The translations under genes and the position numbers were made by a program. The notes below the pieces were generated by a model. The model did no database searches and had not been told where the DNA came from. It saw only the letters and a program-made list of their open reading frames with translations. From Escherichia phage AnnaIndermaur_Bas104: DNA of 40,334 nucleotides. The stretch lies in the sequence record PQ850595.1; one strand, given 5' to 3'. Each line of letters starts with the position of its first letter. Position 1 is the first letter of the stretch. Below are positions 34,090 through 40,334 of this stretch, one piece after another.

Positions 34090-37000
34090 ATGGTTAAGTA
34101 CGATAAGAACGTACCAAGTGAGTATGATGGTCTGTTCCAGAAGGCGGCTGATGCCAACGGGGTCTCTTATGACCTTTTACGTAAAGTCGCTTGGACAGAA
34201 TCACGATTCCAGCCTACAGCAAAATCTAAGACTGGACCATTAGGCATGATGCAGTTTACCAAGGCAACCGCTAAGGCCCTTGGTCTGCGAGTTACCGATG
34301 GTCCAGATGATGACCGACTGAACCCTGAGTTGGCTATCAATGCTGCTGCCAAGCACCTTGCTGAACTGGTGAATAAATTTGATGGGGACGAACTCAAAGC
34401 TGCCCTTGCGTACAATCAAGGTGAGGGACACTTAGGGAGTCCACAACTTGAGGCATACACAAAAGGTGACTTCTCAGCTATCTCCGAGGAGGGGCGTAAC
34501 TACATGCGTAACCTCATGGATGTAGCTCGGTCGCCAATGAGTGGTCAGTTAGAAGCATTCGGAGGAATCACCCCAAAGGGTAAAGGCATCCCTTCTGATG
34601 TTGGTTTGGGGGACATTCAGGTCGAAGGGAAGCGTAAAGTAACAGATGCTATCCCAGAGTCAACTGGATTTAACATTAAAGGTATCGAACAGGAGGCTCC
34701 GGCGAAATCATTCGCTACGGACTTTTGGGACCATCATAAACAGGAACTATCTGAGTATGACGACCGCTCAACATTCTTCGGATTCAAAGATGCTGCAAGT
34801 GCAGAAATTGACAACTCAGTACTAGGCATGGCCTTCCGTGCTGGTCGCCTCGATAATGGTTTTGATGTGTTTAAGGATGTTATCACACCTACGCGTTGGA
34901 ACTCTACTGTCTGGACTCCTGAGGAATTAGAGCGGATTCGCACAGAGGTTAAGAACCCAGCGTATCTCAATGTTGTTACAGGTGGTTCCCCTGAGAACCT
35001 TGATGACCTAATTAGATTAGCCAACGAAAACTACGAGAATGACCTAAAGAAAGCTGATGCAGGTATCGGTGCACAGCTTTCCGCTGGCGTTGTTGGTTCA
35101 GCATTCGACCCACTATCATATGTACCACTGGTTGGTGTAACAGGTAAGGGCTTTAAGCTAATCAATAAGGCTCTTGTGGTTGGCGCTGAGAGTGCCGCTA
35201 TTAACATGGCCTCAGAAGGGATGCGAACGTCTATAGTTGGTGGAGACGCTAATTACACTGGTGCGGTACTAGGCGGCCTTGTATTTGGGGCAGGAATGTC
35301 TGCAATCAGTGACGCTATCTCCGCTGGGCTTAGACGCAGCAAGCCTGAGGCTGAGTTTAACAATGAGTTCGTTGGGCCGTTAATGCGAATGGAAGCTCGC
35401 GAGACTGCCTTTAACGCCAACTCTGTGGACACGTCTAAGATGAACACAGACAGCGTTAAATTCGACCGAGAGTACAGTGGGGTTGACTACGCACCATTGG
35501 ACACCGAGCCGGGTGCAGTTGTCCTACCTCAAGGTCAAATCCTCAGTGACACTAACCCACTGAACCCACAGACATTAAGTGAGTTTGAGGCGATAAACCC
35601 TGAGCGTGCAGCCAGAGGTATCTCCTTAGGTGGGTTCACTGAGATTGGCCTTAAGACACTACGTTCTGAGAACGCGGCGGTTCGCTCCATTGCACGTGAC
35701 CTAGTGCGCTCTCCAACTGGTATGGAATCAGGGTCTAACGGTAAGTTCGGTTCTACCGCTGATGACATCCATAGTAGAGTATCATCCAACGATAACCGCG
35801 ATTGGAACCTCTACTATGATAAGATGAACGAAGTCTTGAAAGACCCTGAGTTCACAACAGGTGCGCCTAAGATGAGCAAAGCAGAGGCCGTTGAGTTCAT
35901 TGACCGCAAAATTGGACTGGCAATAGAGCACCCTGAGTTACAGGTAAACTTGTCTCCTAAAGAGCTAGACCTGATGCGCCACGTTAAGGGCCACTATGAC
36001 CTCAAGCGTGAACTCATGGAAAACCCTGCTGTGTTCGGGAATCCAAAAGCGGTTAGTATCTTCCCCGGCAGTAACTACAAAGGTACGTACATTCCGCGAG
36101 TGTATGACACCCAATCGAAGAATTTTTATATTCAACTTTTGGGGAGTCGAGAGGCTTTTCAGGAGGCTATCGCTGGAAGTTCCCTTGCGTCCTACTATCT
36201 GCGTCCAGAAGTTAAGGCACGTATCGACGAGCACCTGATGGAAGTTAACGGACTTAAGTCACCTAAAGACGTAACGCACGAAATGGTGCGAAAGCACGCT
36301 ATGGACAAGGCATATGGTATCTCCCATAGTGACCAGTTCTCAGCGTCTTCTATTGTTGATGAGAACATCACTGGTCTTGTCGGTATTGAAAATAATAACT
36401 TTCTGGAAGCACGTAACCTCTTTGATACTGACGTACCTATTACATTACCTGATGGCTCTACGTTCTGCGTAGATGACATTCGAGTGTTCAGCCAGCGTAT
36501 CCTTATGCCAGCGTATGACCGTCGTGTGAATGGTGATATTGCCATCATGGGTAGCTCTGGTAAAACTACCAAGGAACTCAAGGATGAAATTATGGAACTA
36601 AGTAAGCAGGCAGAAGGTAATGGGCAGTTGAAGGGTGAAGTAGAAGCTCTCAAGGATACCGTGAAGATTCTAACTGGTCGCGCCCGTCGCAGCCCAGAAG
36701 GTGCTTTAGGGACAGCTTTACGCTCTCTGAATGACCTGACGTTCTTCGCCAAGAACTTCTATATGCCTCTCCAGAACTTCACGGAGATTGCTGGTATGTT
36801 GGTCAAAGGTAATGTCTCTGCGATGACTCATGGAATCCCTATGATTAACGATTGGGTTAACCGTAGGAAACCAATGCGGGCCTCTGAGATTAAAGAACTC
36901 CACAGTATGGTGTTCGGGAAGGAACTCGACCAGCTAATGCGCCCTAGTCGTGAAGACCACATTCGCAGACTCAGGGAGTCTACAGACACCAACGCTGTGT

Positions 37001-38064
37001 TGGCTAATGTGGTTGGTACTCTTCGTTTCAGCACTCAGGAGTTAGCGGCTCGTTCACCGTGGACTGTTATGCTAAATGGAACCACTAACTACATCCTAGA
37101 TGCTGCCCGTCAAGGTGTCCTTGGGGATATTGCCAGTGCAGCACTATCAGGGACTGGTGCTAAGTTTGGTAAGGCAAACTATCTTAAGTCTGCCTCAATC
37201 AGTCCTGAGCAGTGGGATGGTATCAAGCAATTATTTCGGGACCACACAACTAGGGATTCTAACGGTAAGTTCACAATCAAGGACAAAAGGGCGTTCACCT
37301 ACGACCCACGCACGATGGATTTGTGGAGGCTTGCTGACAAAGTGGCTGGAGAGACTATGCTGCGCCCGCATAAGATTTCCTCTCAAGATTCCGTTGCGTA
37401 TGGGGCAGGAGTAAAGATGGTGATGCAATTTAAGAACTTCGTTATCAAGTCGCTTAACGCCAGATTCGTCCGTAGCTTCTATGAGGCCACAAAGAACAAC
37501 CGTGCGTTAGACCAAGCGTTAACTCACATTGTTGCCTGTGGGCTTGCTGGTGGATACTACGTTGGACAGGCGCACCTAAAGGCCGCTGCCTTGCCTGAGG
37601 ACAAACGTAAGGAGTACCTCAAGATGGCACTAGACCCGAAGATGATTGCCCATGCGTCTATCTCCCGTAGCTCACACTTAGGTTCGCCACTTAGCATCTA
37701 CGATATGATCGCTGGGGTGTTTGGTGATGATACCTATAAATACACACGCTCCACGATACTACCTAAGCAACCAGATGAACGAGATCGCACAAAAGCGGTC
37801 ACAGGTCGGCAGGTGACTGGTATGATTAGTGGTGCTTTAGGTGAGCAGATTCCTGCTTTGGGGTTCGCAGGGCAGGTTGGTGGTACAGCGCTTAATGCCG
37901 TATCACTACTGAAAGCACCTAACAAGGCTACCGAGATGGAGTTCCGTACAGGGATGTTTAATACCATGCGTGAGATTGTTCCTAACGACCCTATCACGCA
38001 GCAACTCATTATGAAAATTTATGAGGCCAATGGTATCTACATCAAGGAGACACCTAGGAAATAA
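34090..38064 (+). CDS. 16: internal virion protein D with N-terminal lytic transglycosylase domain (T7 gp16 homolog), 1324 aa
   Basis: SLT-like N-terminus ...WTESRFQPTAKSKTGPLGMMQFT...; length and sequence as T7 gp16. Confidence 0.95.
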   Translation: MVKYDKNVPSEYDGLFQKAADANGVSYDLLRKVAWTESRFQPTAKSKTGPLGMMQFTKATAKALGLRVTDGPDDDRLNPELAINAAAKHLAELVNKFDGDELKAALAYNQGEGHLGSPQLEAYTKGDFSAISEEGRNYMRNLMDVARSPMSGQLEAFGGITPKGKGIPSDVGLGDIQVEGKRKVTDAIPESTGFNIKGIEQEAPAKSFATDFWDHHKQELSEYDDRSTFFGFKDAASAEIDNSVLGMAFRAGRLDNGFDVFKDVITPTRWNSTVWTPEELERIRTEVKNPAYLNVVTGGSPENLDDLIRLANENYENDLKKADAGIGAQLSAGVVGSAFDPLSYVPLVGVTGKGFKLINKALVVGAESAAINMASEGMRTSIVGGDANYTGAVLGGLVFGAGMSAISDAISAGLRRSKPEAEFNNEFVGPLMRMEARETAFNANSVDTSKMNTDSVKFDREYSGVDYAPLDTEPGAVVLPQGQILSDTNPLNPQTLSEFEAINPERAARGISLGGFTEIGLKTLRSENAAVRSIARDLVRSPTGMESGSNGKFGSTADDIHSRVSSNDNRDWNLYYDKMNEVLKDPEFTTGAPKMSKAEAVEFIDRKIGLAIEHPELQVNLSPKELDLMRHVKGHYDLKRELMENPAVFGNPKAVSIFPGSNYKGTYIPRVYDTQSKNFYIQLLGSREAFQEAIAGSSLASYYLRPEVKARIDEHLMEVNGLKSPKDVTHEMVRKHAMDKAYGISHSDQFSASSIVDENITGLVGIENNNFLEARNLFDTDVPITLPDGSTFCVDDIRVFSQRILMPAYDRRVNGDIAIMGSSGKTTKELKDEIMELSKQAEGNGQLKGEVEALKDTVKILTGRARRSPEGALGTALRSLNDLTFFAKNFYMPLQNFTEIAGMLVKGNVSAMTHGIPMINDWVNRRKPMRASEIKELHSMVFGKELDQLMRPSREDHIRRLRESTDTNAVLANVVGTLRFSTQELAARSPWTVMLNGTTNYILDAARQGVLGDIASAALSGTGAKFGKANYLKSASISPEQWDGIKQLFRDHTTRDSNGKFTIKDKRAFTYDPRTMDLWRLADKVAGETMLRPHKISSQDSVAYGAGVKMVMQFKNFVIKSLNARFVRSFYEATKNNRALDQALTHIVACGLAGGYYVGQAHLKAAALPEDKRKEYLKMALDPKMIAHASISRSSHLGSPLSIYDMIAGVFGDDTYKYTRSTILPKQPDERDRTKAVTGRQVTGMISGALGEQIPALGFAGQVGGTALNAVSLLKAPNKATEMEFRTGMFNTMREIVPNDPITQQLIMKIYEANGIYIKETPRK

Positions 38065-38084
38065 TACGACTCACTATAGGGAGA
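38062..38084 (+). promoter_or_regulatory. T7 RNAP promoter phi17 (class III)
   Basis: TAATACGACTCACTATAGGGAGA. Confidence 0.9.
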
Positions 38085-38136: not shown

Positions 38137-39927
38137 ATGGCTAACGTAATTAAAACCGTTTTGACTTACCAGTTAGATGGCTCCAAGCGTGATTTTAATA
38201 TCCCGTTTGAGTATCTAGCCCGTAAGTTCGTAGTGGTAACTCTTATTGGTGTAGACCGCAAGGTCCTTACGATTAATACAGACTACCGTTTTGCTACGCG
38301 TACTACCATCTCACTAACCAAGGCTTGGGGTCCGGCAGATGGCTACACGACCATCGAGTTGCGTCGAGTAACCTCCACGACCGACCGATTGGTTGACTTT
38401 ACGGACGGCTCAATCCTACGTGCGTATGACCTTAACGTAGCTCAGATTCAAACTATGCACGTAGCAGAAGAGGCCCGTGACCTTACCGCCGATACTATCG
38501 GTGTTAATAATGATGGTCACTTGGATGCCCGTGGTCGTAAGATTGTGAACCTAGCGTTCGCTACTGGCGACTATGATGCTGTTCCTCTGAAGCAGATTAA
38601 GGAACGTGAGAACTCTGCGTGGAACGCTGTTATTAAATCTGACGAACACGCTAACCGCTCCAACAGGGAAGCCAACCGCTCACGCGACGAAGCTGACCGC
38701 GCGAAACGTGAAGCTGACCGCTCAACCCAACAGGCAGGTGTCTCTACGTCACAGGCAGTTGAGTCCAAAACGCAAGCTGACCGTTCCAACTCTGAGGCCA
38801 ACCGTGCTAAAGGTTATGCCGATAGTATGACCACAAGCGTCGCTGAGGCCAAGAAGCAAGCTGACCGCTCTAACTCTGAGGCCAATCGTGCCCGTGATGA
38901 GGCCAATCGTGCTGCCGGAGAAGTGACTAAAGCTGCTGCTGAGGTTGTCAAGGCTGCTGCACATGTTGGGACCGCTAAGGGACATGCTGACCGAGCCAAC
39001 ACTGAGGCAAACCGTTCCAAAGGCGAGGCTGACCGTGCTAAGGCCGAGGCCGATAAGTTGGGCAACATGAATGGCCTTGCTGGTGCTGTAGAGAGAGTTC
39101 AGGGTAATAGTGTATCATGGAAAGGAGAAGGCTCTTGGGTTGGAGGTCCTGTATACAGACTTCCAACGAACAACGCATTTAGGTTCCGTATGGGTATTTG
39201 GGAAGAAGGCGACTTCCTTAAGTCTGACTTCGCCATGGACCGACCGGACGGTATAGGGTTCATAGAGTATTCAGCGGACAAGACTGGGCAACATCGTCAC
39301 CAGATGCGACTTAATCAGTTAACAATAGCTGGTGGTGTGTTAGAGTCAGATGCTGATGGTCTCATAGCTCACGCTTTCGCTGACCAGTACAACACTAAAG
39401 CTCCTTTCTTCCAACAGATTAATGTACAATCTACAAGCTCATATCATCCAATAATAAAGCAACGAACTTTCCAAGCTGGACGATGGGCAGGATGCTGGTC
39501 TATCGGCACATTACTGACTGGAGCGCATCCATCATTCCACATACATATGAGAGACGAAGCTGGAAATGATAAACTTTGGGCGTTCAATACTAATGGAGAC
39601 TTCCACGCCAATGGGGAGATTTGGGCAGATGGTGGACGTGTGGTTGTACGGAATGGCTCTTTAAACCCTGAGGGTAGAGTTTGGGGTACTGCGTATAATA
39701 ACGGATACCTAGATGACTGGATTCGGGCAAACTGGCCAGGCGATGTTTATTGGGGTCCTCAACGCTGGCAACAGAAGTGGGGAGGTTATGCAGACATTTA
39801 TGCTGGTGCTGGGGAAGCCTGCTCTGGTATAACCGCCGATGGTAGCGGTAACGTTGCGGGTGCATTCTTCCGAGCGCTTTGGCTTGGGTATCACAATGGT
39901 AATAGACGATTAGTTGCTTCCCAATAA
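38137..39927 (+). CDS. 17: tail fiber protein, mosaic: T7 gp17-like N-terminal tail-attachment domain plus heterologous coiled-coil and C-terminal receptor-binding region, 596 aa
   Basis: first ~150 aa (MANVIKTVLTYQLDGSKRDFNIPFEYLARKF...GHLDARGRKIVNLA) match T7 gp17; the remainder shows no resemblance to T7 gp17 as I recall it. Confidence 0.9.
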   Translation: MANVIKTVLTYQLDGSKRDFNIPFEYLARKFVVVTLIGVDRKVLTINTDYRFATRTTISLTKAWGPADGYTTIELRRVTSTTDRLVDFTDGSILRAYDLNVAQIQTMHVAEEARDLTADTIGVNNDGHLDARGRKIVNLAFATGDYDAVPLKQIKERENSAWNAVIKSDEHANRSNREANRSRDEADRAKREADRSTQQAGVSTSQAVESKTQADRSNSEANRAKGYADSMTTSVAEAKKQADRSNSEANRARDEANRAAGEVTKAAAEVVKAAAHVGTAKGHADRANTEANRSKGEADRAKAEADKLGNMNGLAGAVERVQGNSVSWKGEGSWVGGPVYRLPTNNAFRFRMGIWEEGDFLKSDFAMDRPDGIGFIEYSADKTGQHRHQMRLNQLTIAGGVLESDADGLIAHAFADQYNTKAPFFQQINVQSTSSYHPIIKQRTFQAGRWAGCWSIGTLLTGAHPSFHIHMRDEAGNDKLWAFNTNGDFHANGEIWADGGRVVVRNGSLNPEGRVWGTAYNNGYLDDWIRANWPGDVYWGPQRWQQKWGGYADIYAGAGEACSGITADGSGNVAGAFFRALWLGYHNGNRRLVASQ

Positions 39928-39936
39928 GGAGACATT

Positions 39937-40320
39937 ATGCGTAAATTTACTAACTGGACATACGAAGTAACTACCGCTTACGGCGGTATCGCCACTTATG
40001 ACGTGACGGCCTCTTGTGGGACCGATTGGTATGAACTCATGGTTGAACTTGAGGACCGACCTGAGAGATGGGTAGTCGGTATTGATAAGAACGGATTCAT
40101 CTCATGGTTCTCCGATGGAACTGTTAACGGCACTTATGCGCCACCTGAGGGCGGTCTGGTGATTGTCACCGATGAGTTCGACCCTGAGTGGCAACGTGTT
40201 AAACTTTGGAACGGGGAGTCCTTCGAGGATATCCCTAATCCACCTAAACGTACACCTGAGGAAATCCAAGCAGACCTTGAGGCTCTGATGGTTGAACTTC
40301 GTGGGCTTAGGGGGGGATAA
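39937..40320 (+). CDS. hypothetical protein, 127 aa; candidate tail-fiber assembly chaperone (weak Tfa-like resemblance)
   Basis: intact ORF with AAGGAG RBS 6 nt upstream, inserted between gene 17 and 17.5; acidic, no TM; PEGGLVIVTDE...LWNGESF loosely resembles the lambda Tfa / P2 gpG N-terminal region as I recall it. Confidence 0.45.
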   Translation: MRKFTNWTYEVTTAYGGIATYDVTASCGTDWYELMVELEDRPERWVVGIDKNGFISWFSDGTVNGTYAPPEGGLVIVTDEFDPEWQRVKLWNGESFEDIPNPPKRTPEEIQADLEALMVELRGLRGG

Positions 40321-40334
40321 TGGAGGTAAACTAA

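Follow-up and report, generated by a model that had tools for sequence, protein, structure and literature searches.

Exchange of the fibre tip as a module is already known among T7-type phages and includes tips that come with separate Mu-like Tfa genes. T7 itself needs no separate helper gene for its tail fibre protein gp17, the structure of which has been solved for the N terminus (7BOZ and 8E4G) and for amino acids 371–553 (4A0T). Tfa proteins combine a variable N-terminal fibre-binding domain with a conserved C-terminal helical oligomerization domain (PMC9608196), and the related Teseptimavirus EmilieLinder (Bas103), which has a fibre and a separate Mu-like Tfa, is dependent on the O16 O-antigen (PMC11990801). 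Here we analysed gene 17 of Escherichia phage AnnaIndermaur_Bas104, together with the open reading frame of 127 codons that follows it (ORF127), in a stretch of 40,334 nucleotides (PQ850595.1; hereafter the window). We consider it highly probable that gene 17 encodes a three-module fibre that arose by homologous recombination at conserved linkers, and that its tip was acquired with the adjoining Tfa-like gene.

Gene 17 (38137–39927, stop codon included) encodes a protein of 596 amino acids and lies on the plus strand, as do the fibre modules, ORF127, the promoters and gene 17.5 described below. The protein matched the T7 tail fibre N-terminal domain (PF03906; amino acids 1–155, E = 1.6e-66) and the tail fibre family phrog_4242 (E = 4.6e-193), and the gene has the surroundings of T7-type gp17, with gene 16 and a phi17 promoter upstream and the holin and terminase genes downstream. 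The resemblance to T7 gp17 covers the adaptor (98% identity), a coiled-coil shaft and an EADKLxNxNGLAGA junction, and it probably continues, as remote homology at the profile level, into T7 amino acids 386–479, the pyramid and connector. By contrast, the shaft is another allele, in which EA(D/N)R heptads recur regularly and which exceeds the T7 shaft by 42 residues, no likeness to the β-sandwich of the T7 tip is detectable in the last ~60 residues, and a Tfa-like gene follows gene 17, at a locus where T7 has no counterpart of ORF127. The protein belongs to the T7 gp17 family by its adaptor, its position and its rod, and not by its tip domain.

The modules of the fibre have different nearest relatives. 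Cedecea phage Yanou and EmilieLinder share the backbone (96–97%) and the adaptor and shaft (93–100% at the protein level), and they too carry a fibre gene and a separate helper gene preceding the holin gene; their tips, however, are only 25–28% identical to that of the window, and their helper is a canonical Caudo_TAP protein of 175 residues with 29% identity to ORF127. Conversely, C5, JB01 and the N30 group share the tip (87–93% identity for C5 and JB01, 76–78% for the N30 group) and the gene for a 127-residue protein (97–98% and 45–46%, respectively), which is likewise placed ahead of the holin gene, but their T7-type fibre of 554 residues has a short T7-like shaft instead of the long Yanou-type shaft of the window. 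Given these differing relatives and the sharp DNA boundaries between the modules, we conclude that the fibre is a three-module mosaic. At the level of sequence, the comparisons establish two modules after the adaptor that appear to have been inherited separately, a Yanou-type shaft and a C5/JB01-type tip.

Module 1, the N-terminal tail-attachment (adaptor) domain (amino acids 1–140; 38137–38556), is 96–100% identical to its counterparts in T7, C5, JB01, N30, Yanou and EmilieLinder, and it matched the solved N-terminal chains of T7 gp17 (7BOZ, 8E4G and 8DSP). Identity to T7, which is 98% over amino acids 1–140, falls to 24% over amino acids 141–300, 19% over amino acids 336–505 and 18% over amino acids 536–596. 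In the DNA, the earliest differences from T7, C5 and N30 appear at ~38539, and homology to these phages is lost at 38585–38588. An initial annotation of this DNA had described a T7-like adaptor over the first ~150 residues, a breakpoint near 38560 and a length of 596 residues as against 553 for T7 gp17, and our analysis bears out all three. The same annotation had considered uniform divergence from T7 as the contrary outcome; the segmentwise comparison revealed a drop in identity that is sharp, not gradual. The DNA of the 3′ part of gene 16 and the 5′ part of gene 17 is just ~72–76% identical to that of T7, C5, JB01 and N30, as against 96–100% for the adaptor protein. Compared with the neighbouring gene 16, the adaptor is much more strongly constrained, or it has been homogenized by recombination.

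Module 2 is a heptad-repeat coiled-coil shaft of the allele type found in Yanou, EmilieLinder and JeanTinguely (amino acids 141–300, with the module extending to ~317; 38557–39036). It is 93–95% identical to the shafts of Yanou and EmilieLinder and 21–24% identical to those of T7, C5, JB01 and N30, from which it also differs by a length gap of 42–47 residues. We found ten [EQ]A[DN]R motifs between amino acids 178 and 297, all in one heptad register, and repeats with a period of 21 nucleotides, one heptad, in the DNA from 38648 to 39056. The pattern is that of a predicted uninterrupted coiled coil, the same kind of structure as the T7 rod in a different allele. The initial annotation had called the shaft heterologous, a description that does not hold for a divergent, longer allele with no foreign fold. 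The sequence suggests that the extra rod length may have come from internal duplication of heptad blocks, and if the coiled coil is canonical, 42 additional residues would amount to ~6 nm of rod. A pair of 67-nucleotide repeats is also present in the shaft DNA (38760–38826 and 38844–38910), with a spacing of 84 nucleotides and 78% identity.

The shaft and the tip meet at a conserved junction (…ADRAKAEADKLGNMNGLAGAV…; 39028–39089), which we regard as the crossover zone because DNA homology switches partner there. Identity to Yanou is 96% through 39089 and resumes from 40332, whereas identity to C5 and JB01 is 94–95% from 39028/39046 and persists past the end of the window into the genes for the holin, the terminase and Rz. 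The switch is therefore confined to a conserved segment of ~60 nucleotides encoding …EADKLGNMNGLAGAV…. This second sharp breakpoint, at ~39028–39089, was overlooked by the initial annotation, as was the downstream gene for 127 residues. Its proposal of a mosaic fibre produced by a host-range module swap stands as regards the T7-type adaptor, the sharp breakpoint and a distal part of non-T7 type, but what it took for one block of shaft and receptor-binding region is two modules.

A protein search with full-length gp17 returned 1107 homologues. The junction motif, EADKLGNxNxLAG (amino acids ~305–318), was found in 103 of 121 gp17 homologues independently of the type of shaft or tip. When shafts and tips were grouped by single linkage at 50% identity or more, the 103 junction-bearing proteins, a sample biased towards relatives of the query, comprised 8 shaft types and 26 tip types. 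We found 12 tip types joined to the shaft type of the window and 4 shaft types joined to its tip type, but the combination seen here occurred only in the window and in one metagenome protein (P0002). The latter is a fibre of 596 residues with 94% identity, encoded on an independent contig (L009; 40,016 bp) from an ENA metagenome that has the same three modules, the same gene for 127 residues and the same flanks.

The tip did not move alone. Relative to Yanou, which is 96% identical up to 39089 and from 40332, the exchanged cassette (39090–40331) contains both the tip and the helper gene; at this site Yanou and EmilieLinder have an unrelated tip and a Caudo_TAP Tfa of 175 residues. ORF127 (39937–40320), which we predict to be a Tfa-like tail fibre chaperone gene, has a GGAG ribosome-binding site and starts after a gap of 9 nucleotides from the gene 17 stop codon. 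It accompanies this type of tip in C5, JB01, N30 and the metagenome contig; in C5 and JB01 it is annotated as a 'hypothetical protein' after gp17. The tip of N30 is 86% identical to that of the window over amino acids 336–505 and 61–63% identical over amino acids 506–596, and its helper is 45% identical. Because the drop in the distal 90 residues parallels the drop in the helper, the distal ~90 residues and the helper seem to covary, as expected if they touch. We observed the same arrangement in N30, CQ615 and AV103, in which the proximal tip is common (86%) and both the distal 90 residues (61–63%) and the helper (45%) have diverged, relative to 39652–40320 of the window. This pattern places a third exchange boundary inside the tip, at amino acids ~505–530, around the GxxWGTxY…YLDDWIR connector.

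Within the tip (Module 3) we distinguish a β-rich proximal part, Module 3a (amino acids ~319–505; 39090–39651), and a distal part, Module 3b (amino acids 506–596; 39652–39924), made up of a connector helix (amino acids ~525–532) and a small β-head (amino acids ~533–596) that is presumed to be the receptor- and chaperone-binding end. Over amino acids 336–596 the tip is 87–93% identical to those of C5 and JB01 and 19–28% identical to those of T7, Yanou and EmilieLinder. For Module 3a the values are 87–89% for C5 and JB01, 86% for N30 and 19–27% for T7 and Yanou, and for Module 3b they are 80–93% for C5 and JB01 and 61–63% for N30. Some metagenomic gp17 homologues (among P0081, P0083, P0044 and P0058) match only the last ~88 residues of the tip, with 41–44% identity, and others only its first ~195–229 residues. 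Such partial matches point to sub-modular exchange inside the tip. A word-indexed protein search with the tip alone gave 464 candidates, none of them significant, which reflects a limit of the tool, since the full-length query recovered homologues in large number.

A profile of 32 homologous tips matched T7 gp17 at the junction and at T7 amino acids 387–480 (PDB 4A0T, E = 1.7e-10; hhalign 99.4%). This alignment holds some partly T7-like rows, and in a repeat with 24 rows that left them out, T7 amino acids 386–479 were still matched with E = 1.2e-4. The conserved core of the tips is …G(R/N)(V/I)xGTxWGGxYLDxxxR…, and the connector, GxxWGTxY…YLDDWIR, aligns to T7 amino acids ~443–463. We take the T7 counterpart of this core to be the terminal part of the pyramid domain together with the connector helix, on the assumption that these lie within amino acids 371–464 of 4A0T, and T7 amino acids 465–553 to be the tip domain, a β-sandwich that is presumably the lipopolysaccharide-binding end. 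Against that domain, amino acids 536–596 of the window fibre gave only 18% identity with 17 gaps, in an alignment that is not significant; the head here has ~64 residues. Remote homology of the pyramid and connector to T7 is therefore likely, and in the initial annotation's heterologous receptor-binding region it is only the last ~60 residues that have no detectable T7 counterpart. The annotation had also remarked that the distal part is rich in Trp, Gly and His. The peptide that it quoted, HANGEIWADGG...DDWIRANW, is present and begins at amino acid 490, and the richness is real (W 5.0%, G 13.6%, H 3.2%), but it is not diagnostic: the distal part of T7 has 4.2%, 12.9% and 2.8%, and this near-equal composition of T7's own tip rules it out as a marker of foreign origin.

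An AlphaFold monomer model of the tip had a mean predicted local distance difference test score (pLDDT) of 70, with values of ~74–89 for the last 80 residues and poor values for tip residues 86–123. In a Foldseek search, the solved structure that matched it best was the tail fibre of Mu (5YVQ_A, E = 6.7e-7), with T7 gp17 next (4A0T, E = 0.015, with a low template-modelling (TM) score). Judged by profiles and alignments, the tip is probably a distant relative of the distal-fibre architecture of T7 and Mu, in which only the terminal head (~amino acids 533–596) is without a detectable T7 counterpart.

The likeness extends to T-even phages. Amino acids 374–515 of gp17 are ~33–45% identical to internal segments of gp37 from Tequatro-, Mosig- and Winklerviruses (phrog_1699, E = 1.8e-11), although the window fibre is much shorter. 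Neither an HxH iron needle nor features of a gp38 adhesin came to light, though no search was aimed at them. In the T4-like Erwinia phage Cronus (Tevenvirinae; L005, 3508–5393), a distal fibre of 494 residues is followed, at the gp38 position and ahead of the holin gene, by an ORF127 homologue of 130 residues (40% identity), and the C terminus of the Cronus fibre (amino acids 336–493) is homologous to amino acids 462–595 of gp17 (E = 1e-9). We conclude from this pair that the head and its helper are a unit common to podoviruses and myoviruses. Most T-even phages use gp38 and gp57A, not the ORF127 family; their gp38 adhesins, which are bound at the tip of gp37, have ~250 residues, glycine-rich motifs and hypervariable loops. 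ORF127, by contrast, has 127 residues and showed no similarity to gp38 in any search, the common feature being position, in Cronus only. Escherichia phage ST2 (OM982647.1, L004, 171 kb) was considered as a second T4-like carrier of ORF127 and rejected because the record looks mixed or chimeric. It is labelled Kagunavirus, yet contains an ORF127 homologue and T7-like genes for a holin and a small terminase beside unrelated genes, and it is unfit as evidence of distribution.

A word-indexed search with ORF127 gave a single near-identical match, and its family became visible only in an exhaustive search of representatives. That search returned 26 representatives at E ≤ 0.001, 21 of which have 113–136 residues, the other 5 being longer proteins with weak, partial matches; tblastn additionally matched T7-like phages of Klebsiella, Erwinia, Pantoea, Citrobacter and Serratia. 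The N-terminal ~100 residues of the family are variable except for a DWYxLM motif, and the best-conserved stretch is a C-terminal helix (amino acids 107–125, RTKEDIxADLxxLxxELKxL). When we compared the family profile by hhalign with the helper of Yanou, ORF48, a Caudo_TAP member of 175 residues (PF02413, E = 2.5e-10), the two matched with 94.4% probability (E = 8.7e-8) over 97 columns that include the DWYEL motif. The match ends at amino acid 139 of the 175, short of the C-terminal end of the Yanou Tfa.

In the PDB, the first and sole credible match to the AlphaFold2 model of ORF127 (pLDDT 91.6) was the Mu Tfa chain 5YVQ_B (probability 1.0, TM-scores 0.53/0.64), and in BFVD the hits after members of its own family were annotated tail fibre assembly proteins (E = 5e-4 to 7e-3). 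Thus the models of the tip and of ORF127 independently pick the two chains of one solved complex, the Mu fibre gpS and its Tfa (5YVQ_A and 5YVQ_B), each as its best solved match. As in Mu Tfa, the helper has a variable N-terminal domain, predicted to bind the fibre, and a conserved C-terminal helix, the arrangement of which may be analogous to the canonical oligomerization domain; ORF127 appears to mirror the Tfa layout in shortened form. It differs from Mu Tfa in that it has no Caudo_TAP match, is ~50 residues shorter, has a single helix at its C terminus and conserves another motif, and the fibres differ in that Mu's belongs to a myovirus baseplate and that of the window is mounted on a podovirus adaptor.

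In the explanation that we favour, Module 1 would be a T7-type domain that varies hardly at all and anchors the trimer in the tail, Module 2 a rod of trimeric coiled coil with heptad repeats, in the allele of the closest backbone relatives, and Module 3 a β-structured tip of C5/JB01 type, with a proximal β-region, a region like the T7 pyramid and connector, and a small distal head unlike the T7 tip domain. While the fibre is still nascent, its distal head would be bound by the N-terminal α/β domain of ORF127, whose C-terminal helix would gather the three chains; trimerization and folding of the tip would begin at the distal end, as described or proposed for Mu Tfa, and the folded tip and head would set the surface structure used for adsorption. 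Because each tip would need its own helper, the two would travel jointly, in a single cassette bounded by the EADKLGNxN junction on one side and the holin gene on the other. A receptor other than that of T7 is plausible, because the T7 tip domain appears to have been replaced and EmilieLinder, which is closely related in its backbone and has another tip–Tfa cassette, is O16 dependent. We found no receptor data in the literature for tips of the C5, N30, JB01 or AV103 type; vB_EcoP_S37A (PMC13611991) has a different fibre.

Several results weigh against this explanation. A search of 5,426 complete E. coli genomes with the cassette DNA (39090–40320) gave no match and hence no prophage donor. ORF127 matched nothing in Pfam, PHROG or NCBIfam, none of 22 members of its family matched Caudo_TAP (PF02413) at E ≤ 1, and a single conserved helix is present where canonical Tfa proteins have a C-terminal domain of two helices. 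The Foldseek E value of its match to 5YVQ_B is only 9.4e-3 despite the probability of 1.0. The tip model is of moderate quality (pLDDT 70, predicted TM-score 0.34, monomer of a trimer), with low TM-scores to 5YVQ_A and 4A0T that we attribute to modelling an intertwined trimer as a monomer. Because the Caudo_TAP model fails and the canonical C-terminal domain is lacking, we class ORF127 as Tfa-like, probably a short, remote relative of the tail fibre assembly proteins of Mu (gpU) and lambda type, and do not file it as a Caudo_TAP member.

The initial annotation had treated everything past the T7 adaptor as one heterologous block from one donor. Set against T7 alone, gp17 looks like this, with identity dropping at amino acid ~141 and no high recovery, but the 93–95% identity of the shaft is to Yanou and EmilieLinder, whose tips are unrelated, and the 87–93% identity of the tip is to C5 and JB01, whose shafts are T7-type. 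The change of DNA partner at 39028–39089 and the restriction of the shaft and tip combination, among the 103 homologues, to the window and one metagenome relative also argue against a single swap, which we regard as very unlikely. Even less credible is an assembly chimera, in which two co-occurring T7-like phages were collapsed at the conserved junction. The shared ~60 nucleotides could let an assembler switch templates, and the database does hold a clearly mixed record, OM982647 ('ST2'); the independent 40,016-bp ENA contig, however, has a 94% identical fibre with the same modules, gene and flanks, the reading frames are intact, and the tip is only 87–93% identical to that of any isolate, hence no copy of a known co-assembled phage. 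Fibre tips evolve fast, so that rapid, uniform divergence of gp17 outside a constrained adaptor could be invoked without any recombination, but every module has counterparts of >87% identity in different phages, the boundaries are sharp in the DNA and a whole extra gene accompanies the tip, which leaves this account with almost no probability.

Homologous recombination at the conserved linkers thus being our preferred origin for the fibre, a further question is what becomes of ORF127 once the tip has folded. It might stay on the mature fibre tip and help to form the surface that binds the receptor, serving, like Mu or P2 Tfa or T2-type gp38, as an adhesin-like accessory. Mu Tfa stays attached to the distal fibre in the virion (PMC9608196) and the Cronus homologue occupies the gp38 position, and the covariation of the distal 90 residues with the helper is compatible with either role; against such retention, ORF127 has none of the glycine-rich or hypervariable segments of gp38 adhesins, its family is small, and the most conserved part is the C-terminal helix. 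We therefore think retention rather unlikely. More speculatively, the family of 127–136 residues could be a distinct minimal Tfa-like class, a fibre-binding domain plus one helix, that is retained on the head and aids receptor recognition, forming with the ~90-residue distal head a mobile adhesion unit, a 'head plus cap', that passes between T7-like podoviruses and myoviruses (the T4-like Cronus); to this we would give somewhat less credence again.

The window is a circular permutation of a T7-like genome of ~40.3 kb (Teseptimavirus) and opens precisely with the ATG start codon of gene 17.5, the holin gene (1–204; 67 residues, translation MLSLDFNNEIVKAAP…), which is the right-hand flank of the cassette. 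The last nucleotide of the window lies 14 nucleotides past ORF127, and alignments to T7, C5 and Yanou continue across the ends (1–204 and 40321–40334). Terminal sequences of 20–50 nucleotides have no second copy elsewhere in the window, from which we conclude that the direct terminal repeat of T7 type is collapsed or absent in this representation. The backbone from 15000 to 38136 is nearest to Yanou, with 97% identity over 97% of the stretch, followed by EmilieLinder with 96% over 87%. Upstream of gene 17 lies gene 16 (34090–38064).

We found 10 matches to the T7-class promoter with three or fewer mismatches, 5 of them perfect, where 0 would be expected by chance; they lie on the plus strand at 2866, 3892, 9468, 9544, 10048, 22377, 25327, 26366, 30734 and 38062, a set that implies a predicted RNA polymerase with promoter specificity identical to that of T7. 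The last of these (38062–38084), a perfect match to TAATACGACTCACTATAGGGAGA and the class III equivalent of phi17, serves gene 17 and the genes downstream. No terminator-like site was found from this promoter to the end of the window, and the T7 promoter consensus had no other match between gene 17, ORF127 and gene 17.5. The three genes form a single transcription unit.

Although every module described here is present in deposited genomes, the exact breakpoints, the rare combination of shaft and tip, the recognition of a short Tfa-like family that lacked annotation and the occurrence of this family in a T4-like phage are new. The 'hypothetical protein' after gene 17 in C5, JB01 and N30 can now be named a Tfa-like tail fibre chaperone, and the name probably extends to the open reading frames matched by tblastn in T7-like phages of Klebsiella, Erwinia, Pantoea and Serratia, which were matched by sequence and not by their neighbourhood to a fibre gene. 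For the retargeting of T7-type phages, amino acid ~140 and the EADKLGNxN junction (amino acids ~305–318) are natural splice points, and the tip is best moved with its helper gene; a swap of this fibre into T7 would probably fail without ORF127. The principle had already been established, for example by EmilieLinder in the BASEL collection and by the fibres of Mu, P2 and lambda, so current understanding is unchanged, and the locus adds a further clear case of tip-plus-chaperone cassettes across phage morphotypes, with ORF127 as the most informative part of the cassette.

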